Positions 20,470 through 57,718 are shown, numbered from the stretch's first letter. The stretch is DNA of 64,000 nt from Chloroflexota bacterium (GCA_965263075.1 CBDHGI010000006.1:2790101-2854100), one strand, 5' to 3'. Made by a program: numbers and translations. Notes: generated by a model from the sequence alone, not told the origin.

Positions 20470-20471
20470 AT

Positions 20472-21662: not shown

Positions 21663-21666
21663 CTAG

Positions 21667-42531: not shown

Positions 42532-45117
42532 CTAGCCGGGGGCGCCGGCCGGGCTAGGGGTGGTCTCGACGATGGTCGGCTTGCCGTCCTGCAGGCGAAG
42601 TTCGAACTCGCGGCCCTCGGCTGCCTCCTGCATGACGTGGTCAGTGAGCGGCTGATCGACGTATTCGCCCACCAGTTGCGCGATCGGGCGAGCGCCGGCG
42701 TGCCGACCGAGGGTAACGGTGACGATGTAGTCGAGCGCGTCGGAGGTGATGTGGAGGCGGATGCCCAGATTCTCGGCGCGTAGGGTGGCGTCGGACAGCG
42801 CGCGTCTCGCGATCTCCCGGATTTCCTCCTCGGCCAGCGCGCGGAAGACGACCAGGCGGTCGATGCGGTTCAGGAATTCGCCGGGTAATTGCTTGCGGGC
42901 GTACTCGCGGATGCGGGCTTCGTAAGCAGTATGGCGCCGGGCCGACTCCGAGGTCGGTTCGAAACCGATGGAGGGTCCGGTGACCTGGTCGACGCCCAGG
43001 TTCGAGGTCAGCACGACGATGGTGTTGCGGAAGTCGACGTGGCGGCCGTTGGCGTCCGTGAGCAGGCCGTCTTCCATGATCTGCAGCAGAACATGCAACG
43101 TTCGGGGGTGGGCTTTCTCCACGTCGTCGAAGAGGACGACGGAGTAGGGGTTGCGGCGAACGGCCTCGGTGAGCCCGCCGGCTTCGTCGAACCCGACGTA
43201 GCCCGGCGGGGAGCCGATCAGCCGCGAGATGCTGTGGTACTCCGACATCTCCGACATGTCGACCCGCACCAGGTTTTCGTCGGTGCCGCTCACGAATTGG
43301 GCCAGGGCCTTGGCGGTTTCGGTTTTGCCGACGCCTGATTCGCCCAGGAAAAGGAACGATCCGATGGGGCGGCGTGAATCGCGCATGCCGGCGAGGGCGC
43401 GGCGTAGGGCGCGACCAAGTTCGGTTAGGACGTCGTCCTGGCCGACGACGCGTTTCCGCAGGTCGTCTTCCATGTGCAGGAAGCGGTCGGAGTCGTTCGC
43501 GGCCAGCGTGGGTAGCGGCACGCCGATCCAGGCGGACAGGACCTCGGCGATCTCGTGGGGTGTGATGACCGGACGATCTGTTCCGACTTCGGCCTGCCAG
43601 GCGTCGCGCTCGTTGCGAAGTTCGTCGCGGAGTTCATCGGCGACTTGCGCGCGCACCGGGCGTGGGGCTGCGGTGGGGTTCGGGGACGCAGCGGGGATCT
43701 GGGGTTCGGCCGTCACGCGTTCGGCGGGCGGTTGGGCGTCGGCCGTCGTCGGCTCGTCGGGCGCTTCGGGCGCGGCCTCGATTTGGGCGTCCAAGGATTT
43801 GATCCGGCGCTGAAGCTCGATGATGCGGGCCGGCGGCGTCTCGCGCCGCACCTTGGCCCGAGCGGAGGCTTCATCCATCAGGTCGATGGCTTTGTCGGGG
43901 AGCTGGCGGGAGGTCACGTAGCGGCGCGACAGATTCACAGTGGCGTCCACGGCGTCGTCGGTGACCTCGACCGCGTGATAGGACTCGTAGACAGGGCGCA
44001 GGGCTTTCAGGATTTCGATGGCGTCGTCGTCGCTCGGTTCATCCACGTCGATGGGTTGGAAGCGGCGGTTGAGGCTCTTGTCGTTGGCGATGTAGCGGCG
44101 GTATTCGCGCCAGGTGGTGGCGCCGATGACCTGCACTTCGCCGCGGGCCAGGTGGCCCTTGAGCAGGTTGGCGGCGTCCAACGACCCGGCCGCGCCGCCA
44201 GCGCCGATCACGGTGTGCAGTTCGTCGATGAAGAGAATGACGTCGCCGCTCTTGCGGACCTCGGCGATGAGTTGCTGGACGCGTTCCTCGAACTCGCCGC
44301 GGTACTTCGCGCCGGCGATCATGCCGGGGAGGCTGAGGGAGATTAGGCGCTTGTTCACGAGTTCGTCAGGAACGTCGCCCTTGACGATACGGTGCGCGAG
44401 GCCCTCGGCGATGGCCGTCTTGCCGACACCCGCGTCGCCTACCAGCACCGGGTTGTTCTTGGAGCGGCGCAGCAGGACTTCTATGGCGCGGTCCATCTCA
44501 ACCTGGCGGCCGATGACGGGGTCCAGGTCGCCGGTGCGGGCGGCGTTGGTGAAGTCGCTGCCGTATTCGGCCAGCATGCTGCGGGGCTTGCTGCGACGTC
44601 CGCGCCCTCGCCAACGTCCGCGGCGGCGGCGGCCGCGGCCCGGCGATCCGGGTTGGTAGGCGGCTTCGACGCGACGACGGAGCGGTCGGAACTCGATTCC
44701 GGCCGCGGCCAGCGCTCCCGAGGTCAGACGACCGGCGTTGGCCAGCGCGCCGAGCAACAGGTGCTCGGTGCCGATGAAGCGGACGCCCATGCGTTCGGCT
44801 TCCAGGGCGGCGGAGCGCAGCACGTTGCGGCCCTGCGCGGAGAGTGGGCGCCGGCCCTCGTCCCGCGCGTAGCCCGGGGGCAGGGTGTCGACGACGGTCT
44901 CGCGCAGCGGCTCCAACTCGATGCCGGCATCGCGCAGAACACGCGCAGCGGCGGTCTGCGGCGACTCCAGGATGGCCAGGAGGACGTGGCCGGGACCGAC
45001 GGCGTCGTGCCCGAGCCGAGCGGCTTGAAGCTCGGCGTGCTGGAGCACGCGACGGCCGCGGCCGGTGAGGCGGCGGATGTACTCGACTGGGGCGTATTCG
45101 TCGGGTTCGCGTTCCAC
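42532..45117 (-). CDS. clpC: AAA+ chaperone, Clp ATPase ClpC-like (two Clp_N repeats, two AAA modules)
   Basis: 861 aa. Walker A sites GDAGVGKT and GESGVGKT. Short middle domain (ClpC/ClpA-like rather than the long ClpB coiled coil). Confidence 0.88.
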   Translation of the reverse strand: MEREPDEYAPVEYIRRLTGRGRRVLQHAELQAARLGHDAVGPGHVLLAILESPQTAAARVLRDAGIELEPLRETVVDTLPPGYARDEGRRPLSAQGRNVLRSAALEAERMGVRFIGTEHLLLGALANAGRLTSGALAAAGIEFRPLRRRVEAAYQPGSPGRGRRRRGRWRGRGRRSKPRSMLAEYGSDFTNAARTGDLDPVIGRQVEMDRAIEVLLRRSKNNPVLVGDAGVGKTAIAEGLAHRIVKGDVPDELVNKRLISLSLPGMIAGAKYRGEFEERVQQLIAEVRKSGDVILFIDELHTVIGAGGAAGSLDAANLLKGHLARGEVQVIGATTWREYRRYIANDKSLNRRFQPIDVDEPSDDDAIEILKALRPVYESYHAVEVTDDAVDATVNLSRRYVTSRQLPDKAIDLMDEASARAKVRRETPPARIIELQRRIKSLDAQIEAAPEAPDEPTTADAQPPAERVTAEPQIPAASPNPTAAPRPVRAQVADELRDELRNERDAWQAEVGTDRPVITPHEIAEVLSAWIGVPLPTLAANDSDRFLHMEDDLRKRVVGQDDVLTELGRALRRALAGMRDSRRPIGSFLFLGESGVGKTETAKALAQFVSGTDENLVRVDMSEMSEYHSISRLIGSPPGYVGFDEAGGLTEAVRRNPYSVVLFDDVEKAHPRTLHVLLQIMEDGLLTDANGRHVDFRNTIVVLTSNLGVDQVTGPSIGFEPTSESARRHTAYEARIREYARKQLPGEFLNRIDRLVVFRALAEEEIREIARRALSDATLRAENLGIRLHITSDALDYIVTVTLGRHAGARPIAQLVGEYVDQPLTDHVMQEAAEGREFELRLQDGKPTIVETTPSPAGAPG

Positions 45118-45133
45118 GGCGCTTAACGGCTCC

Positions 45134-45331
45134 TCAGAGGCCGATGGGAAGCTGGTCGACGAGGCTTTGCAAGCCCTCGCCGATGCTGTTGCCCAGAGAC
45201 GTGAACACCACGATCAGGACGATCACGAAGACGGCGGTGACGAGCAGATAGCTGAACACGCTCGACCCCTGGGGCAGATAGCGGCCGGAGGCCGGCCCGC
45301 GACCCGAATGGCGGGGCGCCCCGGTGGGGTT
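45134..45331 (-). CDS. Possible small membrane protein (single transmembrane segment)
   Basis: GTG-initiated ORF of about 66 codons (VTANLNPTG...SYLLVTAVFVIVLIVVFTSLGNSIGEGLQSLVDQLPIGL) immediately upstream of clpC. It has a hydrophobic core but no homology that I recognise. Confidence 0.2.
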   Translation of the reverse strand, partial: NPTGAPRHSGRGPASGRYLPQGSSVFSYLLVTAVFVIVLIVVFTSLGNSIGEGLQSLVDQLPIGL

Positions 45332-45463
45332 GAGATTGGCCGTCACTCCGGCTCCGAGGGCTTGTCGATCCCTGCAAGTGTAGACGGGCGGGGCGGTGGG
45401 GTGCTTGCTGGGGCTGGCGATGGGTATAGACCGGAGCGGCGCAATCGGGGGTCTCGCGCGCAA

Positions 45464-45487
45464 TAAGAGTTTTTTCCAAAAAACTCT
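45464..45487. repeat. AT-rich perfect palindrome AAGAGTTTTTT-CC-AAAAAACTCTT in a GC-rich background
   Basis: 11-bp arms and a 2-nt centre, seen directly. Lies about 350 bp upstream of the clpC start. Confidence 0.6.
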
Positions 45488-45734
45488 TGAGGCGCGGCGG
45501 GGCGTCTTTTGGCTGAAGCGGGGACGCGCCGGGCCACGCCCGGCGACGGACGGACCGGGGTGTGGCACGGGAGGGCAGCAGGGCGCGGCGGGGCGAGGTC
45601 TTGCCAGGGCGATGTGGCGAGACCTGGGCGGGATGCCGGGCGGCTCGCACCGGCACGGCAACCGGCGGTCGCGGGAGTCGGACGAAGCTGAGGGCGGGTG
45701 CCGGGCGGCGGGAATTGGGTGGGGGTAAAGGGGG

Positions 45735-45802
45735 AGCTATCTCTCGCCAGCCCGCCCCCTCTGGGGGCGGGCTGGCGAGAGATAGCTTGGGCCGAATTTT
45801 TT
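45735..45802 (+). repeat. Perfect 25-bp-stem hairpin (loop TCT) followed 9 nt downstream by T6
   Basis: Left arm AGCTATCTCTCGCCAGCCCGCCCCC (45735..45759). Right arm is its exact reverse complement (45763..45787). TTTTTT at 45797..45802. Terminator-like or a REP-type structural element. Confidence 0.55.
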
Positions 45803-46135
45803 GGCGGGTTGGCGAGGAAGGTTGGGGCTGTGAGGGGACGGCAGGACGGCGCGAGGGACGCTGGGTGCGCGGACGTGGCGAGGGGTTGGGGTGGGGGCGT
45901 CTCGAGCGGAAGAGACTGGTCTGAGACCGGCCGAGACGCAAGGTGAGGAACAGGCGGGGGCGCTCGGTTGCGAAGGTGGCGAGCAGTCGGAGGAGGCGGG
46001 TGAGCATGGAGGGTCCGGGGGAGGGCGTGAGATACGGCCTCTCTAGTGTATACTAAATGAATACGACAGGCAAGGCTGACGGGGGTAGTGGGGGCAATTC
46101 GGAGCGATAGTGGGCTCGGGATGGTGGGGAGGTCG

Positions 46136-46296
46136 GGGCGTGGTTCGACAGGCTCACCAGGGACGCTGGGTGCGCTGGGATTGTTGGGTGCCGCTGGGCC
46201 CCCTCCTTCGGCAGGCTCAGGGCAGGTTCTCCGGGGACGCCGGGATGTGGTTCGACTCGGCCCTCCGAAGACTGCGGGCCGGCTCACCATGAACGG
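46136..46296. repeat. REP-like modular GC-rich repeat, copy A
   Basis: Contains modules CCTTCGGCAGGCTCAGGGCAGG, TTCTCCGGGGACGCCGGGATG, TGGTTCGACTCGGCC and GGCTCACCATGAACGG. The same modules recur in copies B, C and D. Confidence 0.6.
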
Positions 46297-46346
46297 TAGG
46301 GGACGGGGCACGGAGGTCGGGAGGCGGGGGTTGGGCGCGGCTTGGG

Positions 46347-46494
46347 ATGTGTTCAGTCGGTCGGGGCAATGTGTTCAGTTTCGGGGCCAATGTGTCCAGT
46401 TTTCGGGCCAATGTGTCCAGTTCTTGGCCGAATGTGTTCAGTTTCAAGGGGGATGTGTTCACTTTGGCGGGCGATGTGTCCAGTTTTTGGCGGG
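46347..46494. repeat. Tandem array of seven 21-22-bp direct repeats (core ATGTGT(T/C)CAGTT), iteron-like
   Basis: Core motif starts at 46347, 46369, 46390, 46411, 46432, 46453 and 46474, i.e. a 21-bp period (two helical turns). Noncoding context. Confidence 0.75.
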
Positions 46495-46535
46495 GCGCTC
46501 TGGTTGGGGATGGGGCGCGGACGGAAGGCGAGATT

Positions 46536-46606
46536 CCTCCTTCGGCAAGCTCAGGACAGGCCTCGACGGGCTCAGGGCAGGTTCTCCGAGGACGCCGGGA
46601 TGACGG
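46536..46606. repeat. REP-like modular repeat, copy B
   Basis: CCTCCTTCGGCAAGCTCAGGACAGG...GGGCAGGTTCTCCGAGGACGCCGGGATGACGGG. Confidence 0.6.
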
Positions 46607-46729
46607 GGGAGGTGGCACGTGATTGGTGGGTGGTGGGGAGTGGCTGGTGACGGGGGCGGGGGTTGGGCTGGGTGGGATCGGAGGGCGAATTGAGGCTGGG
46701 GATGGCGGGGGCTGGCAATGACGTCGATG

Positions 46730-46760
46730 CCTGCAACGCAATCAGTAAATGCGTTGCAGG
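46730..46760. promoter_or_regulatory. 11-bp inverted repeat CCTGCAACGCA-N9-TGCGTTGCAGG upstream of hsdM; candidate operator or structural site
   Basis: Perfect arms with an AT-rich 9-nt spacer (ATCAGTAAA). A flanking imperfect direct repeat GATGC(C/A)(T/G)GCAACGC. About 165 bp upstream of the hsdM ATG. Confidence 0.4.
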
Positions 46761-46923
46761 CGATGCAGGCAACGCTGGCAAGGATGGCGAGCTCGGGACG
46801 CTTGCGTGAACGGTGCGGCTGGCAGGGGTTGGGCGCGGGGAGTGGGTCGGTTTGACCTGGGTGCGGTAGCTTGCGGGCCGGACATAGGTGGCGAGATACA
46901 CGCACAGCAGCGGTGAGGGGCGG

Positions 46924-49017
46924 ATGAACGCGGGGACGCATGGGGAGTTGGCGGGCTTTGTCTGGAGCATTTGCAACCTGTTGCGGGGGCCGTATAAGCG
47001 GAACGAGTACCGGAAGGTGATTCTTCCGCTGACGGTGTTGCGGCGATTCGACTGCGTGCTGGCGGAGACCAAGGACGCGGTCCTGGCGGAGAACGAGAAG
47101 TACGGCGGCGAGGCCAGTTCCCAACTGCTGCAGGCCGCTTCAGGATTCCGCTTCTACAACGTCTCGGAGTTGGACTTCGAGCGGCTGCTGGACGACCCGA
47201 ACCTGATTGCGTCGAACCTGACCGGTTACATCAACCGATTCTCGGCCAACGTGCGCGAGATCTTCGAGCGATTCGGTTTCGAGGCACAGATCGCGAAGAT
47301 GGACGAGAAAAACCTGCTGTTCCAGGTCGTGCAGGCGTTTGCGCGGGTCGACCTGTCGCCCGAGCGTGTCGACAACATGCAGATGGGCTACGTGTTCGAG
47401 GAATTGATCCGGATAGGGGCAGAGCAGGCGAACGAAGAGGCGGGGGAGCACTTCACGCCGCGTGAGGTCATTCGGCTGATGGTGAGCTTGCTGCTGTCGC
47501 ATGAACCCGACCTAGCCAAGTCACACGTGGTGAAAACGATTTACGACCCGGCGTGTGGTACGGGCGGGATGTTGTCGGTTTCCGAGGACTTTCTGAGGGA
47601 GCACAACAGCACCGCGAATCCGTTTCTCTTCGGGCAGGACCACAATGACGAGGTCTGGGCGGTCTGCGCCTCGGACATGCTGATCAAGGGCGAAAACGCC
47701 GAGAACATCGTCCTGGGCGACAGCTTCACGGCCGACGGGTATGCGCGCCGGTCCGACGGTCGGCGCTACACGTTCGACTACATGCTTGCGAATCCACCGT
47801 TTGGCGTTGAGTGGAAGCAACAGCGGCGTGAGATCGAACTGGAACGGGATTCACTGGGCTTCGACGGGCGATTCGGGGCGGGGCTGCCGCGGATCAATGA
47901 CGGGGCGTTGCTGTTCCTGCAGCACATGCTCTCGAAGATGCAGGCGCCTGAAGACGGCGGCAGCCGGATTGCGATCGTCTTCAACGGGTCTCCGTTGTTC
48001 ACGGGCGACGCGGGGAGCGGGGAGAGCGAAATCCGGCGGTGGATCATCGAGAACGACTGGCTGGAAGCCATCGTGGCGCTGCCGGATCAACTCTTCTACA
48101 ACACCGGGATCTCGACCTACATCTGGGTGCTAACCAACCGAAAGGAAGATCGCCGGCTGCGAAAGGTGCAACTGATCGACGGGCGGCAGTTTTTCGTGAA
48201 GATGCGCAGGAGCCTGGGCAACAAGCGCAACGAACTTTCCGCAGGCCAGATCGACGACCTGACGCGGATTCACGGCGATTTCCTGGACGGCGAGACGCGG
48301 GAACTGACGGATGAAGATCCAGTGACACATCAGCTGCGGACAAGGCCGCGCGTGGTGAGCAAGGTGTTTGCGAACGACGACTTTGGCTATCACAAGATCA
48401 CGGTCGAACGTCCGTTGCGGTTGAACTTCGCGGCGACGCCGGAGCGGATTGCGGGCATCGAGGATGAGCGGTCGTTTCAGAATCTGGCGCGGAGCCCGAA
48501 GCGAGCCGGTCCGGCGCACGATGAGGAAGTAGCTGAGGGTTGCAAGCGGCAAGAAGCGATTCGGATCCTGCTGACCTTTCTAGGAAAAGCAACCGGCGGC
48601 AAGGTGATACGAGACCGCGAAGAGCTGCGGATGGCTCTACGCGAATTGTGCAGCCATGCGGGCTTGCGGCTGTCGGCCGGGGAGCGAAAGGCAATCGAGT
48701 CGGCGCTGAGCGAGCGGGATCCGGACGCTGCCATCTGTCGCGGCAGCCGGGGCAAGATCGAGCCGGACACCGAGTTGCGCGACACAGAGACGGTGCCGCT
48801 GGGTGAGGACATCGACAACTACATGGCGCGGGAGGTGCTGCCGCACGTTCCGGACGCCTGGGTAGACGAGAGCAAGACGAAGGTCGGCTACGAGATACCG
48901 CTAAACCGGCACTTCTACGTCTACGAGCCGCCGCGCGCGCTCGACGAGATCAGGTGCGACTTGCAGCAGCTGGAACGGGGGATCGCGGGCCTGATCTCCG
49001 ATGTCGTGAGAAGCTGA
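46924..49017 (+). CDS. hsdM: Type I restriction-modification system, DNA methyltransferase subunit M (with about 200-aa C-terminal extension)
   Basis: Start MNAGTHGELAGFVWSICNLLRG (ATG 46924, preceded by GGTGAGGGG). HsdM N-terminal domain, AdoMet motif (DPACGTGGML) and catalytic NPPF (LANPPFG). Extra C-terminal region of about 200 aa. Confidence 0.9.
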   Translation: MNAGTHGELAGFVWSICNLLRGPYKRNEYRKVILPLTVLRRFDCVLAETKDAVLAENEKYGGEASSQLLQAASGFRFYNVSELDFERLLDDPNLIASNLTGYINRFSANVREIFERFGFEAQIAKMDEKNLLFQVVQAFARVDLSPERVDNMQMGYVFEELIRIGAEQANEEAGEHFTPREVIRLMVSLLLSHEPDLAKSHVVKTIYDPACGTGGMLSVSEDFLREHNSTANPFLFGQDHNDEVWAVCASDMLIKGENAENIVLGDSFTADGYARRSDGRRYTFDYMLANPPFGVEWKQQRREIELERDSLGFDGRFGAGLPRINDGALLFLQHMLSKMQAPEDGGSRIAIVFNGSPLFTGDAGSGESEIRRWIIENDWLEAIVALPDQLFYNTGISTYIWVLTNRKEDRRLRKVQLIDGRQFFVKMRRSLGNKRNELSAGQIDDLTRIHGDFLDGETRELTDEDPVTHQLRTRPRVVSKVFANDDFGYHKITVERPLRLNFAATPERIAGIEDERSFQNLARSPKRAGPAHDEEVAEGCKRQEAIRILLTFLGKATGGKVIRDREELRMALRELCSHAGLRLSAGERKAIESALSERDPDAAICRGSRGKIEPDTELRDTETVPLGEDIDNYMAREVLPHVPDAWVDESKTKVGYEIPLNRHFYVYEPPRALDEIRCDLQQLERGIAGLISDVVRS

Positions 49018-49066
49018 CGGCGTGACCAGGACGTACCGATCCGACGCGAATCGGGCCGCCTAATCC

Positions 49067-49267
49067 ATGCCGAAGGTGCGGGACGCGATCCGGATGGTGG
49101 AGCGCGACGGCTGGCACCATGTGACCACGCGAGGGAGCCACCGGCAGTTCCGCCACCCAGTCAAGCCGGGCAAGGTCACGATTCCGGGCAAACCGGGCGA
49201 CGACGTGGGGCCGAAGCTCTGGGCCAGTATCATGAAGCAGGCTGGCCTCGAGAGAGAACGTCGATGA
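49067..49267 (+). CDS. hicA: HicA-family toxin (mRNA interferase), type II TA
   Basis: 66 aa. ...VERDGWHHVTTRGSHRQFRHPVKPGKVTIPGKPGDDV..., the typical HicA/YcfA fold signature. Confidence 0.85.
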   Translation: MPKVRDAIRMVERDGWHHVTTRGSHRQFRHPVKPGKVTIPGKPGDDVGPKLWASIMKQAGLERERR

Positions 49268-49608
49268 AGCTCACGTACGCCGTCGTCTTCGAGCAGACGC
49301 CCAACAACTACGCGGCCTATGTGCCGGACGTCCCGGGCTGCGTCAGCACCGGCAAGAGCTGGGACGAGATGCTGGCGATGATCCGCGAGGCGCTGGCGTT
49401 CCACATCGAGACGATCCTGGAGGATGGGGAGCCGCTCCCCGAGCCGAGGATGTCTATCGACGAGGCCATCGCGAACCACAGCGAACCCATCGCCGAGGAC
49501 GTGCTCAACTCCTACCTGGAGTTCGGCGAGCCCGGCCCCACGATCTCGACCCGGTTTGAGATGGTTGAGATTGAGGTTCCCGCCCCGCAGGCTGTTCAGG
49601 TGGGCTGA
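49264..49608 (+). CDS. hicB: HicB-family antitoxin (UPF0150), type II TA
   Basis: 114 aa; overlaps the hicA stop (ATGA). MKLTYAVVFEQTPNNYAAYVPDVPGCVSTGKSWDEMLAMIREAL, the HicB N-terminal RNase-H-like fold signature. Confidence 0.8.
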   Translation: MKLTYAVVFEQTPNNYAAYVPDVPGCVSTGKSWDEMLAMIREALAFHIETILEDGEPLPEPRMSIDEAIANHSEPIAEDVLNSYLEFGEPGPTISTRFEMVEIEVPAPQAVQVG

Positions 49609-49702
49609 CGGACACTCGACGGGGAGCGTTGAGGTGGCCACGGGATCCGCCGACGCGCATCGATGTGACGCGGTCAAGACCGTGAGCGAGTCACGCACGA
49701 CC

Positions 49703-51073
49703 ATGCGCGCCTACCCTCACTACCGCGACTTCGGCGTCGAGTGGCTCGGTGAGGTGCCGGAACATTGGACCTCGGAACAGCTTGGACGCCTCGGCTCGTT
49801 CTCAAAGGGCAGCGGCGGCACGAAAGAAGACGAGGTCGAAGACGGAGTTCCCTGCGTTCGCTACGGGGACCTCTACACAGTGCACCAGTTCCACATCAAG
49901 GAGACCCGGGCAAACATCTCCGAGGACAGCGCAGCCAATTACACGGCAATCCGATACGGGGACCTCTTGTTTGCCGGGTCGGGTGAGACCCTTGAGGAAA
50001 TAGGCAAGTCAGCTTCCAATCTGGTTGGCGGCCCGGCGTATTGCGGCGGGGACGTGATCCTCTTTCGTCCGTCAATCGAGACTGAGGCCACTTTTCTTGG
50101 TTACGCCGCAGATTGCGCTCCTGCGGCTTACCAAAAGGCATGCATGGGGCGAGGCGTCACCGTCATGCACATCTACTCCAGCGAGCTCAAGTACATGGTC
50201 GTGCCGCTCCCACCCCTCGACGAGCAGCGCGCAATTGCCGCGTTTCTGGACCGGGAGACGGAGCGGATCGATGCGTTGGTGGAGAAGAAGCGGTTGTTGA
50301 TCGAGCGGTTGGAGGAGTACCGGACGGCGCTGATCACGCGCACGGTGACGCGGGGGCTGCCGCCCGAGGCGGCGCGCGCCGCCGGGCTGGACCCGTCGCC
50401 GCGGTTGAAGGCTTCGGGGGCGGAGTGGCTAGGGGTCGTTCCAGAGCATTGGGAGGTAAAGGCGCTGAAGTGGGAGACGCCTGTTCAACGTGGGGCTTCG
50501 CCGCGGCCAATTGACGACGAAGCCTATTTCGATAACGACGGCTCACACGCCTGGGTACGAATCGCCGATGTGACCGCAGCTGGTATGTATCTGAATCGCA
50601 CGACACAGCGGCTCTCTGAACTAGGAGTCTCCCTAAGCGTGCCGCTAGAGCCAGGGGAGCTTGTTTTGAGCATTGCTGGATCAGTGGGTAAGCCCTGTAT
50701 CACGAAGATCGATTGCTGCATTCACGACGGGTTCGTCTATTTCCCACAATGGACGGGGGACGTTCGGTACCTGTTCTATGTGTTTGCCTCAGGTGAGCCC
50801 TACAAGGGACTGGGGAAACTAGGCACCCAGCTGAACCTGAACACTGACACAGTCGGTTCAATCTCAGTAGCAATACCTCCAGTAGACGAGCAGGCAGCGA
50901 TTGCGGACTACTTGACCACTGAGAACGCCGAGATTGAGAGCTCGTTGGAGTCGGTCCGCGAAGCCGTCGAACGGCTACAGGAATTTCGGGCAGCCCTCAT
51001 CACCGCCGCCGTAACCGGCAAGATCGACGTGCGCGAAGCCGCGCAAGCGCCGGTCGCTGCAATGTTGGCGTAA
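49703..51073 (+). CDS. hsdS: Type I restriction-modification system specificity subunit S
   Basis: Start MRAYPHYRDFGVEWLGEVPEHW. Two target-recognition domains separated by conserved coiled-coil regions (LPPLDEQRAIAAFLDRETERID... and IPPVDEQAAIADYLTTENAEIE...). Confidence 0.9.
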   Translation: MRAYPHYRDFGVEWLGEVPEHWTSEQLGRLGSFSKGSGGTKEDEVEDGVPCVRYGDLYTVHQFHIKETRANISEDSAANYTAIRYGDLLFAGSGETLEEIGKSASNLVGGPAYCGGDVILFRPSIETEATFLGYAADCAPAAYQKACMGRGVTVMHIYSSELKYMVVPLPPLDEQRAIAAFLDRETERIDALVEKKRLLIERLEEYRTALITRTVTRGLPPEAARAAGLDPSPRLKASGAEWLGVVPEHWEVKALKWETPVQRGASPRPIDDEAYFDNDGSHAWVRIADVTAAGMYLNRTTQRLSELGVSLSVPLEPGELVLSIAGSVGKPCITKIDCCIHDGFVYFPQWTGDVRYLFYVFASGEPYKGLGKLGTQLNLNTDTVGSISVAIPPVDEQAAIADYLTTENAEIESSLESVREAVERLQEFRAALITAAVTGKIDVREAAQAPVAAMLA

Positions 51074-54000
51074 ATGACCAGCCAAACCAACGAGGCGGCC
51101 TTCGAGTCGACCGTTGAGGACATGCTGCTCGAGGGCGGCTGGAACTCAGGCAACCGGTTGGAATGGGACGCGGTGCAAGCTCTCTTTCCGGCGCGTGTCG
51201 TCGCGTTCTTGCAGGCGACGCAGCCCGAACAGTGGGCAGCGATGGCTGGATTGCACGGCGAGAAGCTGAAAGCGCGGATCGTGGACGCGCTGGCCAAGGA
51301 ACTGGTCCTGAAGGGCATGCTGGACGTGCTGCGCCACGGGTTCAAGTTCTACGGCAAGACGTTCCGGCTGGCCTATTTCAAACCGGCGCACGGGCTGAAC
51401 CCGGAGGCGCTGGCGCAGTTCGAGCGCAACGACCTGACGGTCACGCGGCAGGTTGCCTACAACCCGAACACCAACGAAACCTTGGACCTGGTGTTTGCGC
51501 TCAACGGCGTGCCGGTGGCCACGTGTGAGTTGAAGAACCCGATGACGGGTCAGTCCTGGAAGAGCGCGGTTCGGCAGTACAAGCAGGACCGTGACCCTAC
51601 CGCTCCAATCTTCAAATTCCAGAAGCGGGCGCTGGTGCACTTTGCCGCCGATCCCGACGAAGTTCACATGACGACGCGACTGGCCGGGGAGAAAACCCGA
51701 TTCCTGCCCTTCAACCGGGGGAGCCGGCCCGGCGAGATTCAATGCGGGGCGGGCAACCCGCCGCATGCTGCGGGGTACCGCACGGGTTACTTCTGGCAGG
51801 GGGTGCTGGAACGCGAGCGGTTCCTGGACATTCTCGGCTCCTACATGTTCGTGGAACGCCGCGACGAGAAGGTCGAGGACGCGAAGGGCGCACGAACGGT
51901 CAAGCGGGAGACGGTGATCTTTCCGCGCTATCACCAACTGGATTCAGTCGACCGCCTGGTGACGACCGCGGCAGCGGATGGTCCGGGACGCAACTACCTG
52001 ATTCAGCACTCAGCTGGGAGCGGCAAGACGAACAGCATCTCGTGGCTGTCGCACCGGCTGGCGAGCCTGCACGACGCCGACGAGCAGAAGATCTACCAGT
52101 GCGTGGTGGTGATCACAGACCGGCGCGTGCTTGACCGACAATTGCAAGACGCGATCTACCAGATCGAGCACGCGCAGGGCGTGGTGAAGGCGATCGATCA
52201 GGATTCCAAGCAGCTGGCGACCGCGCTGGTGGACGGGACGATGATCGTGATTACGACGCTGCAGAAGTTTCCGTTCGTGATGAAGGGTCTGCTGCGGATC
52301 GCGGGGGCCGACGAGCCGGACGCCGCGAGCGCGGCCGAGCGGGCGCAGGCCGAGTCCTGGAGCAAGGCAATTGCCGGGCGTCGATACGCAGTGATCGTGG
52401 ACGAGGCGCACTCCAGCCAGACGGGCGAGAGCGCGCGGGAAATGAAGGCGGTACTCGGGTCCAAGGCGCAGGCAGCCGAGGAGGAAGGGGACGAGGACTG
52501 GGAAGACGGGATCAATGCGGTGATCGAATCGCGCGGACCGCAGCCGAATCTCTCGTTCTTTGCGTTCACGGCGACACCCAAGGGGAAGACGTTAGAGGTG
52601 TTCGGGCGGCCGGGTCCCAGCGGCAAACCTGAGCCGTTCCACGTCTACAGCATGCGTCAGGCGATCGAGGAAGAGTTCATCCTGGACGTGCTGGGGCGGT
52701 ACACCGACTACGACACGTACTACCGGCTGGTGAAGCAGGCGGCGGAGGACCCGGAGTTTCCCAAGCGGCGGGCGGCCTCGGAGCTGGCGAAGTTCATGCA
52801 GCTGCACGAGTACAACCTGGCGCAGAAAGCCGAAGTGATCGTGGAGCACTTCCGCAACAACGTGCGGCACCAGATGGGCGGCAAGGCGAAGGCGATGGTG
52901 GTGACCTCGGGCCGGCTGCACGCGGTGCGCTACATGCAGGCCTTTCAGCGGTACATCGCCGAGAAGGAGTACGAGGACGTGCGGCCGCTGGTGGCCTTCA
53001 GCGGCACGGTGCGGGATCCGGACACGGGCGAGGAGTTCACCGAGCCGAGCATGAACTGGGACGGGGTGACGGGGAAGCCGATCAGCGAATCGGCGTTGCC
53101 GGGCCGGTTCGCCTCGCCGGACTACCAGATTCTGCTGGTGGCGGAGAAGTACCAGACCGGGTTCGACCAACCGTTGTTGCAGGCGATGTACGTGGACAAG
53201 CGGCTGGACGGGGTGCAGGCGGTACAGACGCTCTCACGGCTGAACCGTATGGCGCCGGGGAAGGAACCGCCGTTCGTGCTGGACTTCGTGAACGACCCGG
53301 AGGACATCCGCGACGCGTTCAAGCCGTACTTCGACCAGACGGAACTGCTGGACGAATCGGACCCGCACAAGCTGGAAGTGCTGAAGCACGAACTGGACCA
53401 GATGCAGGTTTACCACTGGGAAGAGGTGGAGGCGTTCGCGAGGGTGTTCTACCTGCCAGTGGCGAAGCAGCGGAAGCAGGATCACGCGCGGCTGGAAAAG
53501 GCGCTGCAGCCAGCGCGGGGCCGGTTCGGGGCGCTGGACGAGGAGGGCCAGACCGAGTTCCGCGACCGGCTAGCGGCGTTCGCGAACCTGTACGCGTTCC
53601 TGAGCCAGATCATTCCCTATGGCGACAGCGAGCATGAGCGGCTGTATTCGTTCGGGCGGGCGCTGCTGCCGTACCTGCAGGAGGACAGTGAGCGGGAACA
53701 GATTGACCTGGGGGACGACGTGGAGCTGGCGTATTACCGGCTGCAACAGGTGACTGAGGGGGCGATCAGCCTGGGCGAGGGTGAAGGCGCCTACGTGGTG
53801 AGCCCGACGGAGACCGGCACGGGCGACCCGGAGGAAGACAAGGCGCCGCTGTCGGAGATTATCGAGCGGCTGAACGAGCGGTTTGGGACGAACTTCACGG
53901 ACGCGGACCGGTTTTTCTTTGAGCAGGTGAAGGCGCAGGCGGTTCAGGACGAAACGGTGCGCGAGACGGCGCGGGCGAATCCGCTGGATAAGTTCAGCCT

Positions 54001-54172
54001 GGGGGTTCGGGATCAGATTTCTGATCTGATGATTGCGCGGATGAGTGAGAACGATTCGCTGGTGAAGCGGTACCTGGAGGAGACGGAGTTTCAAAATCTC
54101 GCGTATGAGGTGTTGGCGAAGGAGATATTTGCGGCGGTGCGGGGTGGTGAGGCGGGGGTGGCCGGCGGATAG
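51074..54172 (+). CDS. hsdR: Type I restriction-modification system endonuclease subunit R
   Basis: 1032 aa. ATG directly follows the hsdS stop. N-terminal nuclease domain, SF2 helicase motifs (QHSAGSGKT; DEAH-like VIVDEAHSSQ) and a C-terminal helical domain. Confidence 0.95.
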   Translation: MTSQTNEAAFESTVEDMLLEGGWNSGNRLEWDAVQALFPARVVAFLQATQPEQWAAMAGLHGEKLKARIVDALAKELVLKGMLDVLRHGFKFYGKTFRLAYFKPAHGLNPEALAQFERNDLTVTRQVAYNPNTNETLDLVFALNGVPVATCELKNPMTGQSWKSAVRQYKQDRDPTAPIFKFQKRALVHFAADPDEVHMTTRLAGEKTRFLPFNRGSRPGEIQCGAGNPPHAAGYRTGYFWQGVLERERFLDILGSYMFVERRDEKVEDAKGARTVKRETVIFPRYHQLDSVDRLVTTAAADGPGRNYLIQHSAGSGKTNSISWLSHRLASLHDADEQKIYQCVVVITDRRVLDRQLQDAIYQIEHAQGVVKAIDQDSKQLATALVDGTMIVITTLQKFPFVMKGLLRIAGADEPDAASAAERAQAESWSKAIAGRRYAVIVDEAHSSQTGESAREMKAVLGSKAQAAEEEGDEDWEDGINAVIESRGPQPNLSFFAFTATPKGKTLEVFGRPGPSGKPEPFHVYSMRQAIEEEFILDVLGRYTDYDTYYRLVKQAAEDPEFPKRRAASELAKFMQLHEYNLAQKAEVIVEHFRNNVRHQMGGKAKAMVVTSGRLHAVRYMQAFQRYIAEKEYEDVRPLVAFSGTVRDPDTGEEFTEPSMNWDGVTGKPISESALPGRFASPDYQILLVAEKYQTGFDQPLLQAMYVDKRLDGVQAVQTLSRLNRMAPGKEPPFVLDFVNDPEDIRDAFKPYFDQTELLDESDPHKLEVLKHELDQMQVYHWEEVEAFARVFYLPVAKQRKQDHARLEKALQPARGRFGALDEEGQTEFRDRLAAFANLYAFLSQIIPYGDSEHERLYSFGRALLPYLQEDSEREQIDLGDDVELAYYRLQQVTEGAISLGEGEGAYVVSPTETGTGDPEEDKAPLSEIIERLNERFGTNFTDADRFFFEQVKAQAVQDETVRETARANPLDKFSLGVRDQISDLMIARMSENDSLVKRYLEETEFQNLAYEVLAKEIFAAVRGGEAGVAGG

Positions 54173-54237
54173 GGCGCTGGCATTTCTGGGTTGACGGGGT
54201 GGCACGTCGCGCCGGGATCGTTTGGGTGCTGCTGGGT

Positions 54238-54465
54238 CCCCCTTCGGCCGGCCCAGGGCGGGTTCTCCGAGGGACTCCGGGGCGGCTCACCACGAACGGG
54301 GGGTGGGCTGGGGATGTGGTTCGACTCGGGCCGCCGAGGGACTCTGGCCCGGCCCTTCGGCAGGCTCAGGACAGGCTCACCACGAACGGATTGGGGAAGA
54401 CGAGCGGGTCGGAGACGCCGCCTCTACGGAAGTTGGGACCGCGGACGCCGGGATGACGGTAGTGC
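54238..54465. repeat. REP-like modular repeat, copy C (two tandem units)
   Basis: CCTTCGGCCGGCCCAGGGCGGGTTCTCCGAGGGACTCCGGGGCGGCTCACCACGAACGG...GGATGTGGTTCGACTCGGGCC...CCTTCGGCAGGCTCAGGACAGGCTCACCACGAACGG...GACGCCGGGATGACGG. Confidence 0.6.
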
Positions 54466-56200
54466 GCGGTATTCGATAAGGGCTGAGCGGCCGACGACGT
54501 CGAGGATACGGATCAGCGCCTCGTGTCCGTCGGAGTCTGTCAGGCGCAGCTCTTCGCCGGGGGTGAAGTGGACGGGTTGGGGCTGGCCGTGGTTGATCGC
54601 GATGTTGGAGGCGTAGAGATAGGTTCGGTCGCTGGTGTCGCGTATGGGATTGAGGCGGCCCTTGAGGGTGGGTAGGTGTCCGACCGCCTCGGGGAAGATG
54701 ACGCTGCCGCCATCCGGGAGGGGCTGCAGGTCGAGCGTGAGCGCGCCCAGGCTGGGCGTCCAGTCTCGCTCCAGGTGCGCCGCGTGTCGGGGAGCGGCGG
54801 CGAACACGGTCATTGGGAGGTGGGAGGTGGGAGGTGTATAGCTCGACCGCTGCCTCGCCGTCGTCGTTTGTGGTCGCACGTTTCCAGGTCTTGTTCGGGA
54901 ATAGCGCTAAGACGTCGGCGCCGGGCAAGGGCTGACCGGCAGACCGAACGGCAATGACGGCGCTGGCGGGGCTGCTTTCCTGGATTGCCGCAGGGATGGC
55001 GAGGCGGACTTCGGAGTCATCGATGACCTGGTATTCGGGCAGCTTGCCGCAGAGTTCGCGAGTTTCACGCCGGATGATGGGCACGCCGTCGCCGCGGCGT
55101 TCCATGAAGTACTGGTGGTCCTCCGACCCCTGAATTCCGCCAACCGGCAGGCGCGCCAATACGGAGGTCAACGCTTCGTTGCGTGTGACCTGGCGGGTCT
55201 CCATGCTTTCCTCGGTGAGGTTGTTGGGTAGCGAGCCGGGCGACTGAATCTCCAGACGGTCGTCGAACATCGAGAGGCGAATCTTGCTGCCGCGTATCGA
55301 GTAGTCGCGGTGCACGACGGCGTTGACGAGGGCCTCGAACAGCGCCCGGTGGCTGTACTGGGGAAGGTCAACGCGCCCCGGTTCCTTGCGGGCGGCGACC
55401 TGCATGTTGCGTAGGGCGAAGGCGACGGCCTGGGCGATCTGCCTATTCAGCGGGCCGCCGATTTCTTGCGCGTCGATCTGACCGGACGCACGGTCGTTTC
55501 CGCGATAGCGGGTGGCGGTAATCCCAGCGTTTGGCAGCCATTGCTGGGGGTCCGGCGTGCACAACAGCAGGCCGGCGACCGTGGCGCGCGGGATCCCAGC
55601 TTCGTCGCTGGCCAGGAGCGCCAGTCTGCCAAGCGCGGCCTCTGGTTCGGCGGCGCCTTCGGCGCTCAACAGAGGTCGCCAGAGGGACTCGTCCAAGGTG
55701 TTGAATCCGGTGTTTGGAATGGTCTGCTCGTCGAACGATGCGAATCGCGCCTGCCCGCGCCGCTGTGCCAAGCGCAGCCACTCGTCGCCGGTCATTCTTC
55801 GCTTTGTGCCGCCGACGCGGATGTATCGATGACCGGATCGCTCATGCGGCGAATCGCCCGCGGGAACATCGACGATTAACAACCGCTTGCCATCGGGGAG
55901 TTGCATGTGCTGGGTGCGGATGCGAACGGGCGGCTCGATGGCGTCGGAGCTGATTTCGACGACGTAATCGTCTAGCGAGCCAAGTCGCTCACGCGTCATG
56001 TCCTGCCCTTCGCCCTCATCGGTGACACCGCAGAGCAGGGTGCCGCCGTCCGCGTTGGCGAAGGCCGCGATCTCGTCGGCTATGTCGGCGCGGTCCGGGC
56101 TCCTGGGATGGTTGCCGGCGAAATCGACCTGTTTGAATTCCCAGGCGCTGTCCTCGCCCAACTGAAGCCGGCGGGTGATCTCTTCGTCGCTGTAGGTCAT
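54377..56200 (-). CDS. COG2865-type protein (AlbA_2 / 'divergent AAA' N-terminal domain + HATPase_c_4-like domain + beta-sandwich domain); C-terminal about 150 codons probably out of frame
   Basis: Start MTYSDEEITRRL (ATG 56200). AlbA_2-like N-terminus (WEFK...DEIAAFANADGGTLLCGV). HATPase_c_4-like region (ALFEALVNAVVHRDYS...IRLSMFDDRLEIQSPG). CarbopepD_reg-like segment (VIAVRSAGQPLPGADVLA...TTNDDGEAAVELY). After the SHLPPP site encoded by (TGGGAGG)x3 the frame continues as an Arg/Pro-rich low-complexity tail, while a protein-like 130-aa frame (MTVFAAAPRH...LIRILDVVGRSALIEY) continues in another frame. Confidence 0.6.
   Translation of the reverse strand: MTYSDEEITRRLQLGEDSAWEFKQVDFAGNHPRSPDRADIADEIAAFANADGGTLLCGVTDEGEGQDMTRERLGSLDDYVVEISSDAIEPPVRIRTQHMQLPDGKRLLIVDVPAGDSPHERSGHRYIRVGGTKRRMTGDEWLRLAQRRGQARFASFDEQTIPNTGFNTLDESLWRPLLSAEGAAEPEAALGRLALLASDEAGIPRATVAGLLLCTPDPQQWLPNAGITATRYRGNDRASGQIDAQEIGGPLNRQIAQAVAFALRNMQVAARKEPGRVDLPQYSHRALFEALVNAVVHRDYSIRGSKIRLSMFDDRLEIQSPGSLPNNLTEESMETRQVTRNEALTSVLARLPVGGIQGSEDHQYFMERRGDGVPIIRRETRELCGKLPEYQVIDDSEVRLAIPAAIQESSPASAVIAVRSAGQPLPGADVLALFPNKTWKRATTNDDGEAAVELYTSHLPPPNDRVRRRSPTRGAPGARLDAQPGRAHARPAAPPGWRQRHLPRGGRTPTHPQGPPQSHTRHQRPNLSLRLQHRDQPRPAPTRPLHPRRRAAPDRLRRTRGADPYPRRRRPLSPYRIPRTTVIPASAVPTSVEAASPTRSSSPIRSW
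54814..54834. repeat. Heptanucleotide tandem repeat (TGGGAGG)x3 inside a coding region at a frame junction
   Basis: Seen directly: TGGGAGGTGGGAGGTGGGAGG. Loss of one unit would fuse the upstream ORF in frame to the downstream 54424..54816 frame. Confidence 0.7.
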
Positions 56201-56249
56201 TGGTGGTTTGCAGTCTCCTCCCAAGCCATCCTATCCGTAGCCAGTTCTC

Positions 56250-56328
56250 CAGCCGCCGGGATGCTGGGGAGTGTTTCGTGGTTCGATCTGACCTTCTACG
56301 AGCTAAGGACGGGCTCACCACGAACGAG
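56250..56328. repeat. REP-like modular repeat, copy D
   Basis: GCCGCCGGGATGCTGGGG...TGGTTCGATCTGACCTTCTACGAGCTAAGGACGGGCTCACCACGAACG, the same modules as copies A-C. Confidence 0.5.
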
Positions 56329-56375
56329 GGTTGCTGGCCACGAGCGGAGGTGGCGCGCTGCGAGTGACGAATTGC

Positions 56376-56789
56376 TCACTGTGGCGGGTTGGCGAAGGGG
56401 TTGAGGGTGGGGATGCCGAAGTGCTGGAAGTCGCGGATGTTGCGGGTGACGACGGTTAGGCGGTGGACGGTGGCGACGGCGGCGATGAGGGCGTCCTGCA
56501 TGAGGGTGTCTGATTGGCGGTGCATGAGCTTGGCCCAGATCCGAAACGCGGGGGCGTCCACATCGAGCACTTCATAGGTCGCGAGTACGCGGTCGAGCCA
56601 CGATTCCAGGTGTTCCGCCTTGGCGGCGTCCTGCTGGCGGGTGACTTCGATACCGGCCTGGATCTCGCCGATCGTGACGGCTGACAGATAGAGGTGATCG
56701 GCCGGCACACGCTGAATCCACTCCAGTACGGCCGGGCTTGGCCGCGGGCGACGCAGTTCCGAGACGACGTTTGTATCGAGGAGGTACAC
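56376..56789 (-). CDS. vapC: PIN-domain toxin VapC (type II TA)
   Basis: 137 aa. MYLLDTNVVSELRRPRP... with the conserved acidic residues of a PIN domain (D5, E..., D..., ...TRN). Confidence 0.88.
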   Translation of the reverse strand: MYLLDTNVVSELRRPRPSPAVLEWIQRVPADHLYLSAVTIGEIQAGIEVTRQQDAAKAEHLESWLDRVLATYEVLDVDAPAFRIWAKLMHRQSDTLMQDALIAAVATVHRLTVVTRNIRDFQHFGIPTLNPFANPPQ

Positions 56790-56792
56790 GCG

Positions 56793-57053
56793 CTAGTTGA
56801 ATTGCGGGGCGGCACGGCGACGGAGGGGTCGACGCGGGGGTGTGAGAGCTTCGGTGCGCGGCTCGGGCGCGAGCAGCAACTCCTTGAGGTTGGGGCGCGT
56901 CATGCGCTCCAGCCGGCGCCACTGGTCAATCGGGACGAGCACCGCTGTCTCGACGCCGCGCTTTGTGACGATCTGCGGCCCTTCGGCGAGGCTGGTCTCA
57001 AGCAGTTCGCTGAAACGCGCCTTGGCCTCCTGCACTTGCCAGATGTTGCCCAT
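56793..57053 (-). CDS. Phd/YefM-family antitoxin (partner of VapC)
   Basis: 86 aa. MGNIWQVQEAKARFSELLETSLAEGPQIVTKRGVETAVLVPIDQWRRL, the Phd/YefM N-terminal fold. The stop lies 3 nt before the vapC start. Confidence 0.8.
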   Translation of the reverse strand: MGNIWQVQEAKARFSELLETSLAEGPQIVTKRGVETAVLVPIDQWRRLERMTRPNLKELLLAPEPRTEALTPPRRPLRRRAAPQFN

Positions 57054-57070
57054 GCATACCTCCGGGTTCG

Positions 57071-57112
57071 GTTCAGTCTGATTCTGAACTGGCTAGACTC
57101 AAGACTAGTCTA
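57071..57112. promoter_or_regulatory. Paired inverted repeats (GTTCAG-N7-CTGAAC; TAGACT-N7-AGTCTA) in the promoter region of the phd-vapC operon; candidate autoregulatory operator
   Basis: Located 18-60 bp upstream of the antitoxin start codon, in the divergent intergenic region shared with moaC. The sequence is locally AT-richer. Confidence 0.4.
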
Positions 57113-57175: not shown

Positions 57176-57718
57176 TTGCTTCTGGCGCGCAGGGACTTAA
57201 CCACCGGATTGGCTGGGCCTTCGTTTACTCATTTTGACGCGGATGGGTCCGCGCGGATGGTGGACGTGTCGGCTAAGTCGGAGACGGACCGACGGGCAGT
57301 GGCGCGGGGCCGGGTGGTGATGCAGCCGGCGACGCTGGCGATGATTCGCGAGCAGATGGCCGGCGAAACCTCGGACCTGCCGAAAGGCGATGTGCTGGGC
57401 GTAGCGCGGCTGGCTGGCCTGATGGCGGCCAAACGAACGTCGGACCTGATTCCGCTTTGTCACCCGCTGCCGCTGAGCGCGGTGGACGTGGGTCTGACGC
57501 CGGAGGGTGACGATTCGCTGGTGATCGAGGCCAGCGTGCGGACAGTCGGTCGAACCGGCGTTGAGATGGAAGCGCTGACGGCGGTTTCAGTGGCGGCGCT
57601 GGCGGTTTACGACATGTGCAAGGCAGTGGACCGCGGCATGCGGATTGCCGATGTGCGGCTGGTTCGAAAGACGGGCGGGGCGAGTGGGGATTTTCAGCGT
57701 TTGGACGACGAGGGCTAG
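57176..57718 (+). CDS. moaC: Cyclic pyranopterin monophosphate synthase accessory protein MoaC
   Basis: [18 protein letters not shown]...[29 protein letters not shown]...[10 protein letters not shown]. The true start may be an internal start near THFDADG. Confidence 0.88.

Follow-up and report, generated by a model that had tools for sequence, protein, structure and literature searches.

A probable integrase-free defence hotspot between the clpC operon and moaC in an uncultured Chloroflexota chromosome

How does a type I restriction-modification (RM) system with two toxin-antitoxin pairs come to lie between two housekeeping genes of a Chloroflexota chromosome? The 64-kb stretch of Chloroflexota bacterium DNA analysed here (GCA_965263075.1, CBDHGI010000006.1:2790101-2854100; about 67% G+C; hereafter the window, with positions counted from its first letter) carries such a block of about 12 kb between clpC and moaC, which an earlier reading of the sequence alone had described as an accessory island. 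We can confirm that description, and the gene identities given with it hold by Pfam matches above gathering scores. In our judgement the probability is about 85% that the locus is a lineage-specific, core-gene-flanked defence hotspot without an integrase. The island consists of a clade-conserved layer, made up of phd-vapC and a COG2865 gene, and a hypervariable slot; within the 12 kb the variable part extends only over about 45513-54465, and the RM cassette proper over 46827-54177.

The left core flank is the gene for a ClpC-like AAA+ ATPase (42532-45117, minus strand), with Pfam domains Clp_N, AAA, AAA_lid_9, AAA_2 and ClpB_D2-small above gathering scores. Upstream of it, and part of the same flank, is a 70-aa open reading frame (ORF) for a single-pass membrane protein (45134-45346, minus strand), which shows codon periodicity and is called in all relatives. 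The right core flank is moaC (57257-57718, plus strand; Pfam MoaC, and a gene call in the assembly L159), followed 3' by gyrA (57932-60490, plus strand; NCBIfam equivalog). Relatives were found by a ClpC protein search and form a graded series (Chloroflexota metagenome-assembled genomes, or MAGs, where named), whose contigs were compared with the window. The clpC orthologues of the close relatives lie in the same context with 85-100% identity, and the 70-aa ORF is 44-99% identical across the relatives, including L158, the most distant one examined. A ClpC scan of GTDB species representatives gave best matches of 44% identity or less, which were of no use for synteny.

Two relatives lack the island. 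In L089 (ClpC 65% identical) and L158 (60%, on a circular 3.46-Mb contig) a distance of 300-500 nt separates moaC from clpC or its small upstream ORF, gyrA lies beyond moaC, and the moaC-clpC spacer is short and has no GC skew. On this comparison of gene orders, moaC next to the small-ORF/clpC operon is presumably the empty, ancestral state; the ancestor would have had moaC and that operon as divergent neighbours, and the island would have entered between them in the clade of the present genome. The sequence-only reading had proposed a check of clpC-moaC adjacency in related genomes, and had said that a lineage-wide order clpC...hsdMSR...moaC would indicate an ancestral arrangement. The genes are adjacent in L089 and L158, the island lies between them in the close relatives, and the lineage-wide order is not seen.

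Every close relative (ClpC 85-100%) has an island between clpC and the moaC side. In L084-L086 the order is moaC, phd, the PIN toxin gene, the COG2865 gene, variable DNA, non-coding DNA, the small ORF and clpC. L082, L083, L087 and L088 (ClpC 85-94%) have the same order from the COG2865 gene onwards, where the compared DNA ends, and L081 (ClpC 100%) is a short contig that ends inside the variable DNA. At the nucleotide level the flanks are 79-97% identical and the middle is unrelated. The sampled genomes hold seven different slot contents: the type I RM and hicAB genes of the window, shared with L159; a 998-aa type IIG enzyme and three unannotated genes (L082); three copies of the insertion sequence (IS) IS110 with unannotated genes (L083); an MmeI-type IIG enzyme with HEC-01A/B (L084-L086); a 2047-aa Avs1b-like STAND NTPase (L087); a 1336-aa IIG/DrmMI-like enzyme with DUF2806 and others (L088); and small MNT-like genes (L081). 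PADLOC calls in the slot comprise type I RM, three type IIG enzymes, HEC-01A/B and the Avs1b-like protein, and most contents are recognised defence systems. The locus thus has what characterises a defence hotspot, namely shared flanks with differing content, content enriched in defence genes and an empty state in the wider lineage.

Some slot genes have no Pfam match (L082 5344-7472; L083 2576-4042 and 5067-5312; L088 6060-7078; L081 434-2422). Their sole PADLOC match is a weak one to RTasHEPN (L088 6060-6761, E 2e-6), and they are candidates for undescribed defence functions.

The edges of the variable DNA are staggered. On the left, homology with the window breaks at 45512 (L084-L086 and L088), at 45846 (L087) or at about 46786-46789 (L081-L083), and on the right it resumes at 54465 (L084, L087 and L088), 54439 (L083) or 54307 (L082), either at the COG2865 stop codon or in repeats just past it. 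Conservation is nested: phd-vapC and the COG2865 gene are present in all slot-bearing relatives seen, whereas the iterons described below are limited to the four closest. Pfam gave no integrase or transposase domain in any island ORF scanned, the 64-kb window has no tRNA or tmRNA, and no long direct repeats flank the island, so the marks of an integrative mobile element (an integrase or recombinase, a tRNA or att site, flanking direct repeats) are missing from the island of the window. The staggered breakpoints and the lack of recombinase genes lead us to infer recombination through the flanks. The stable part of the island would be phd-vapC together with the Schlafen/GHKL-ATPase (COG2865) gene, and the content of the adjoining slot would often be replaced, by homologous or illegitimate recombination of incoming DNA via the conserved flanks and the dispersed repeats (below), with no site-specific recombinase taking part.

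The slot content of the window is a type I RM cassette, hsdM-hicA-hicB-hsdS-hsdR (46827-54177, plus strand), of 7.35 kb including about 97 nt of its own upstream sequence. The gene hsdM (46924-49017, plus strand) encodes a predicted 697-aa N6-methyladenine (m6A) methyltransferase with Pfam HsdM_N and N6_Mtase domains (93 and 188 bits), a full-length PADLOC MTase_I match of 902 bits and the catalytic motif NPPF at residue 290. The product of hsdS (49634-51073, plus strand, its start taken from the L159 gene call) has two target-recognition domains, with Pfam Methylase_S in two stretches and PADLOC Specificity_I at 321 bits over 94-541. The third subunit gene, hsdR (51074-54172, plus strand), encodes a predicted 1032-aa nuclease with a superfamily 2 (SF2) motor (Pfam HSDR_N, SWI2_SNF2/ResIII and T1R_D3-like), with GSGKT at 315 and DEAH at 443. 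PADLOC, which had been suggested as a check on the sequence-only reading, calls the type I M, S and R subunits. In type I systems HsdM2S1 methylates a bipartite target set by the two HsdS recognition domains, and HsdR, once it has joined the complex on DNA that lacks the modification, acts as a translocase and cuts.

The cassette is not confined to this site. L159, an independent assembly with 99.5% identity to the window, is the only genome to share it at the same position; L160 carries it, with 87% nucleotide identity over window positions 46827-54177, in a completely different gene neighbourhood. The homology runs from 97 nt 5' of hsdM to 5 nt beyond the hsdR stop codon, and these edges coincide with the edges of the slot content in the window. 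L160 has the closest HsdM (90%) outside the strain on a long contig; two matches listed as closer (93% and 89%) are on contigs shorter than 9 kb. Only the hsdS recognition domains, both of which differ (the central and terminal conserved regions alone align), and a 1.19-kb insertion in hicA break the homology. The insertion (L160 12213-13401) contains a 238-aa unannotated ORF and splits hicA; hicB is kept. Recurrence at another chromosomal site in another genome marks the cassette, by alignment, as portable, and hicAB is carried as a fixed passenger within this cassette family.

The sequence-only reading had regarded the island as horizontally acquired and its coding sequence as less GC-rich than the neighbouring core genes. 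Total GC is indeed lower, 0.60-0.65 within the block against about 0.67-0.70 outside, but G+C at third codon positions (GC3) is core-like, 0.81 for hsdM and 0.85 for hsdR where the window's remaining ORFs have 0.79 +/- 0.05. It is therefore codon positions 1 and 2, and not foreign codon usage, that lower the GC of the block, and composition is no evidence of a foreign origin. Horizontal acquisition is supported on other grounds (the ancestral adjacency, the variable slot and the presence of the cassette elsewhere in L160), but the 12 kb are not one acquired unit. More than 100 HsdM homologues with 75-93% identity are among the matches listed, and the few with a source name are Chloroflexota MAGs. 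Together with the core-like GC3 this fits exchange inside the lineage's own gene pool, and the native codon usage suggests donors from the same lineage.

The two toxin-antitoxin pairs, both of type II, belong to different layers of the island. Within the cassette, between hsdM and hsdS, hicA (49067-49267, plus strand; 66 aa; Pfam HicA_toxin, 68 bits against a cut-off of 27) overlaps hicB (49264-49608, plus strand; 114 aa; Pfam HicB_lk_antitox, 54 bits against a cut-off of 27) by 4 nt (49264-49267). The GSH at HicA residues 23-25 is presumably the motif of the family. A literature search on hicAB inside hsd operons gave nothing usable. The role of hicAB is most likely to raise the cost of losing the cassette, or to act as a back-up growth stop. 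Beside moaC lie phd (56793-57053, minus strand; Pfam PhdYeFM, 55.2 bits; NCBIfam phd_fam, 52.8 bits against a cut-off of 20.8) and the PIN toxin gene vapC (56376-56789, minus strand; Pfam PIN, 61.7 bits). The acidic residues D5, E42 and D99 can be seen in the PIN protein, which scores below the cut-off of the VapC equivalog NF047863. This pair is conserved in the clade, with 91% nucleotide identity and the same order in L084-L086, and may do for the stable part of the island what hicAB would do for the cassette.

Between vapC and the slot is the COG2865 gene (54377-56200, minus strand), a 615-aa ORF with AlbA_2 (Schlafen) and HATPase_c_4 domains (Pfam, 62.9 and 68.4 bits, above the cut-offs), of the kind named Schlatpase. 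Its orthologues are found in all slot-bearing relatives with 86-92% nucleotide identity, and the gene is the clade-conserved right anchor of the slot. Genes of this family had been noted to ride often with type I RM loci; this one is not tied to the type I system, since it borders the slot irrespective of what the slot contains, which speaks against a specific partnership with type I enzymes. The window copy is frameshifted. The intact L084 orthologue has 581 aa and the same two domains (PF04326 and PF13749), and in a tblastn search with it residues 1-491 match in one frame and 456-579 in another, which makes the 615-aa ORF a frameshifted chimera. Tandem Repeats Finder (TRF) locates a 7-nt tandem repeat, CACCTCC on the gene strand, at 54814-54836. 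A seven-locus alignment has three copies of it in the window and in the independent assembly L159 and two in the five intact orthologues; the third copy accounts for the loss of frame beyond about residue 461. The Schlafen and ATPase domains, which are N-terminal, stay and a 120-aa C-terminal domain, for which there is no annotation, is lost, so that in this strain the gene appears to have been inactivated, or at least deprived of its C-terminal domain, by a 7-nt slippage duplication.

Among solved structures the sole relative of this protein is the uncharacterised 3LMM. The Schlafen-ATPase two-domain core is present in about 60,000 prokaryotic proteins (bioRxiv 10.64898/2026.05.29.728809; PMC13462974), the SLFN domain is a tRNA nuclease in SLFN-pAgo (bioRxiv 10.64898/2026.05.29.728809), and ATPase-containing Schlafen homologues are tightly associated with RM and BREX (PMC13462974). 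In related proteins the Schlafen domain would be a tRNA-cleaving effector and the ATPase a switch. The Chloroflexota gene shares with these Schlatpases (bioRxiv 10.64898/2026.05.29.728809; PMC13462974) the PF04326 and PF13749 core and the genomic association with restriction systems; it differs in having no Argonaute, NACHT or CARF-type sensor, in its unannotated C-terminal domain and in the frameshift of the window copy.

The spacers of the island contain a dispersed repeat, which had been described as REP-like. The repeat is real and is confined to three intergenic regions of the island within the 64-kb window, always on the plus strand (seven matches against 1.5 expected, a number reached in 0 of 100 shuffles). 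Modules of the form TTCGGCAGGCTCAGG... / GGCTCACCACGAACGG flank the iterons (46151-46300 and 46530-46606), two modules lie at the junction of the cargo and the COG2865 gene (54232-54392), overlapping the 3' end of that ORF, and another lies between the COG2865 gene and vapC (56268-56330). In the relatives, likewise, the repeat occurs only inside the slot. It is not palindromic, and since the folding of five repeat units does not surpass that of shuffled sequence (z from +0.3 to +1.6) we rejected repetitive extragenic palindromic (REP)-type elements in favour of dispersed direct-repeat modules. A 14-mer shared by the DNA before the iterons and the cassette edge, GGGGTTGGGCGCGG, was also rejected as an att-like core, as it occurs seven times against 3.8 expected and 11 of 100 shuffles reach seven.

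On the clpC side the island had been said to begin with a 1.77-kb gene-free region. That interval holds the conserved 70-aa ORF, but 45347-46923 (1.58 kb) is non-coding, by far the longest such run in the window, with no codon periodicity and no Pfam match in its long ORFs. Its plus strand is 46% G and 22% C (GC skew 0.35), and 6 of the window's 12 G-quadruplex (G4)-type motifs lie in it, all on that strand; segments with such motifs are 45692-45734, 46112-46198 and 46652-46685. Next to the slot, every slot-bearing relative has a long non-coding stretch that is rich in G on the same strand, even if non-homologous (L084-L086 and L088 lack the sequence past 45512, and L087 that past 45846), with a GC skew of 0.22-0.49 and G4 motifs on that strand only; the ordinary intergenic regions of the window are not like this. 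G-rich DNA also lies upstream of the same cassette in L160, where the tracts are at 6720-7541 and 9785-10000; with these included, the skew range is 0.22-0.52. The tract diverges by 7-14% between relatives and the four-fold degenerate sites of clpC by 6.5-20.5%, which is about equal.

Several structured elements are embedded in the tract. Nearest the small ORF is a 61-nt element (45447-45507, fold z = -5.8) with a 24-bp A/T palindrome, AAGAGTTTTTTCCAAAAAACTCTT (45461-45484), which is the last sequence common to all slot-bearing relatives. The palindrome, AAGAGTTTTTTCYAAAAAACTCTT in a genome of 67% G+C, is found at about 9560-9660 in L081-L088, with identical arms and a 2-nt centre whose second base is T and not C in L084-L086 and L088; it is identical at another locus in L160 (6808-6831) and absent from the island-less L158 and L089. 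It is probably an operator or a terminator-like element. Farther in are a perfect 25-bp hairpin with a T-run, terminator-like (45735-45787, plus strand; -65.9 kcal/mol, z = -8.3), whose arms stay complementary through compensatory changes in L082 and at the independent locus L110 (about eight in L110), and an A/T-rich box, TAGTGTATACTAAATGAATACGACAGGCA (46027-46075, plus strand), with a sigma-70-like match GTGAGA-16-TATACT. Near the cassette is a 12-bp hairpin, GCCTGCAACGCA-N9-TGCGTTGCAGGC (46729-46761, z = -4.35), with a compensatory change in L082; it stands about 25 nt before the end of homology with L081-L083.

Between the box and the second hairpin lie seven 21-nt iterons with the core ATGTGTYCAGTTT (46344-46494, plus strand; six matches against 0.17 expected). 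Arrays are also present in L081 (2999-3149), L082 (8512-8918, as two arrays of seven and five copies), L083 (6247-6395) and L110 (13952-14060). Over the 38 iterons of the five loci, one G of the spacer and eight positions of the 9-nt core (ATGTGTYCA) do not vary, save for one substitution at position 5 (37 of 38); the remaining core position, Y, is C or T in every copy, and the rest of the spacer drifts. An invariant core with drifting spacers is the pattern expected of phased protein-binding sites, which these repeats may be, and no cognate gene for a DNA-binding protein is evident nearby. In L110 (contig LXNI01002187.1, 13290-14060) the hairpin, G-rich DNA, a similar A/T box, the repeat and the iterons follow in the same order as in the window behind an ABC-transporter gene, in a gene context unrelated to the window; the contig ends 170 nt past the iterons. 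At the locus L092 (53-660) a tRNA-Met gene and a helix-turn-helix (HTH) gene of the excisionase family enclose four iterons that have the same 13-nt core, ATGTGTTCACTCT, and an IS256-type transposase follows, which hints that such arrays belong to the ends of integrative elements. Searches for the iterons gave no matches in viral contigs and none in plasmids (PLSDB); the 68 matches in metagenome contigs are nearly all unrelated satellites, only L110 and perhaps L092 being informative. Rfam gave nothing at gathering thresholds on the window, and at E<=1 only sub-threshold hairpin look-alikes on the tract.

Other readings of the tract were rejected. A chromosomal origin, brought to mind by the diverging genes and nearby gyrA, does not agree with a cumulative GC skew that rises monotonically without a change of sign. 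A replication origin of the oriV type lacks a rep gene, adjacent DnaA boxes and any plasmid similarity. The iterons are not a coding heptad repeat, as third codon positions are among those that do not vary and periodicity is absent, and a search for decayed genes by tblastx against all loci compared gave only low-complexity noise.

These elements bear on the alternatives to a hotspot. The whole 12 kb could be the decayed remains of a single integrative element, such as an integrative and conjugative element (ICE), a prophage or a Tn7/Mu-like transposon, with the iterons, hairpins and A/T palindrome as its former end, origin or recombinase sites and the defence genes as its cargo. Phased direct repeats with an invariant core do resemble plasmid iterons or transposase- or Xis-binding arrays, those of L092 stand beside tRNA-Met, excisionase-family and IS256 transposase genes, the module of hairpin, A/T box, repeat and iterons recurs in another gene context in L110, and L083 has its IS110 copies. 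The island of the window, however, has no integrase, transposase, rep gene, tRNA or flanking direct repeats, conservation is nested and not all-or-none, the RM cassette has tight edges of its own and moves independently, neither plasmids nor viral contigs contain a match to the iteron tract, and the likeness to L092 follows in part from the search pattern itself. We consider an origin of this kind quite unlikely. It is highly improbable that the arrangement is ancestral, an old clpC...hsdMSR...moaC order lost or replaced elsewhere. The GC3 of hsdM and hsdR cannot be told from that of core genes, and phd-vapC and the COG2865 gene are conserved in the clade, as such an arrangement would have it, but it is contradicted by two independent, more distant relatives with moaC beside clpC and a short spacer without GC skew, by the restriction of the RM cassette at this site to the near-identical L159, by the six other contents in close relatives and by the location of the cassette elsewhere in L160.

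The non-coding tract could, alternatively, be an active platform in cis, with a protein bound to the iterons and G-quadruplexes or R-loops formed upon transcription from the A/T box, which would promote recombination in the slot or control expression of the downstream cassette. This agrees with the invariance of the iteron core amid drifting spacers, with hairpins maintained by compensatory changes, and with one-strand G4 and G-rich tracts (GC skew 0.22-0.49) that lie by the slot in every slot-bearing relative, and upstream of the same cassette in L160, and are absent from the ancestral-type spacers and the other intergenic regions of the window. Yet the tract diverges about as fast as the four-fold sites of clpC, L084-L088 have variable cargo without iterons, none of the genes nearby encodes a candidate binding protein, the cargo does not always start with a gene co-oriented with the G-rich strand (L081, L082), Rfam has no match, and the G-richness may simply be G-rich dispersed repeats piling up in dispensable DNA. 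Such a role is unlikely. A further proposal joins the A/T palindrome, hairpins, iterons, G4-prone tract and Schlafen/GHKL gene into a platform that captures, exchanges or controls defence cassettes without an integrase, for which the integron platform and the G4-dependent pilE recombination site of Neisseria offer parallels; this is a long shot.

Some points weigh against the defence hotspot that we favour. The comparison covers only about ten related loci. Transposable elements do enter the slot, as the three IS110 copies of L083 show, and the proposed recombination route is argued from missing recombinase genes and staggered breakpoints. A hotspot does not account for the iterons and conserved hairpins, which may be left over from a mobile element or belong to an active mechanism. 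HsdM and HsdR, moreover, score below the NCBIfam cut-offs (97.5 against 242.75 for TIGR00497 and 173.7 against 284.55 for TIGR00348); we take this to mean a divergent subfamily with a long HsdM, which is nevertheless very common in related MAGs and whose family membership rests on Pfam and PADLOC. The enzymatic activity of the RM system is likewise a prediction from its sequence.

A few features of the neighbouring DNA deserve mention. The ClpC-like protein has an Arg/Gly-rich insert, RGRRRRGRWRGRGRR, C-terminal to its Clp_N domain, and its ORF has 26 extra codons at the 5' end compared with most relatives. In the moaC-gyrA spacer, a sequence of about 61 nt (57782-57842) is 84% identical to an unrelated spacer in L160 (19583-19643) and is another dispersed element, and the interval 62351-62950 has low codon periodicity and a high GC skew (0.29). 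L084-L087 have a second variable region (15411-22574) directly after accA, with a ResIII helicase (779-1034 aa), DUF1828 or NYN, DUF2283 and an N6_N4 methyltransferase of about 1005 aa; in the window and in L082 and L083, accA is followed instead by a metallophosphatase gene and others.

The locus documents a defence hotspot in uncultured soil Chloroflexota, whose anti-phage immunity is almost undescribed. Its anchors (the clpC operon, the Schlafen/GHKL gene and moaC) are fixed and can be used to harvest the slot from many MAGs, and at least ten unannotated slot genes are candidates for new defence functions. It also provides a type I cassette that has hicAB fixed within it, and a cargo-independent Schlafen/GHKL neighbour that bears on the role of these very common RM-associated proteins.

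Parts of the locus have counterparts in well-known systems. The gamma origin of R6K has seven 22-bp iterons, and the repeats of the window resemble those of such plasmids in being seven, head-to-tail, about two helical turns in length and built of a conserved core and variable spacers; they differ in lacking a rep gene, adjacent DnaA boxes, a GC-skew switch and similarity in PLSDB. In EcoprrI/PrrC the gene for a growth-arresting RNase lies within an hsd operon and is inherited with it. Here a canonical two-gene hicAB, and not an anticodon nuclease restrained by the RM system, lies between hsdM and hsdS, and the likeness is in gene layout and joint inheritance. The immigration control region of E. 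coli (hsd-mcr-mrr) is an integrase-free locus in which type I RM and other restriction genes are exchanged via conserved flanks. The Chloroflexota island is like it in having no integrase, in the proposed exchange via flanks and in its swapped hsdS recognition domains, and differs from it in that the alternatives are of unrelated types (type IIG, HEC-01, Avs-like, IS) and not only allelic hsd genes.

Other hotspots of E. coli are occupied by mobile genetic elements (MGEs), their cargo being carried on prophages, ICEs, transposons and satellites with integrases (PMC10121019). They have diverse defensive cargo at one position in common with the present slot, whereas integrase-type genes were not found in the slot of the window or in those of most relatives. 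In Pseudomonas aeruginosa, cDHS1 and cDHS2 (PMC10250203) are, like this locus, fixed sites between core genes with anti-phage systems that vary among strains, unannotated candidate genes included. The Chloroflexota site differs from them in phylum and flanking genes (the clpC operon and moaC), in the sample of about ten loci, and in that one flank of its slot is an older island (Schlafen/GHKL and vapBC) and the other a long G-rich non-coding tract with iterons. A swappable defence site between housekeeping genes is a well-known kind of feature, of which this locus is an ordinary example.

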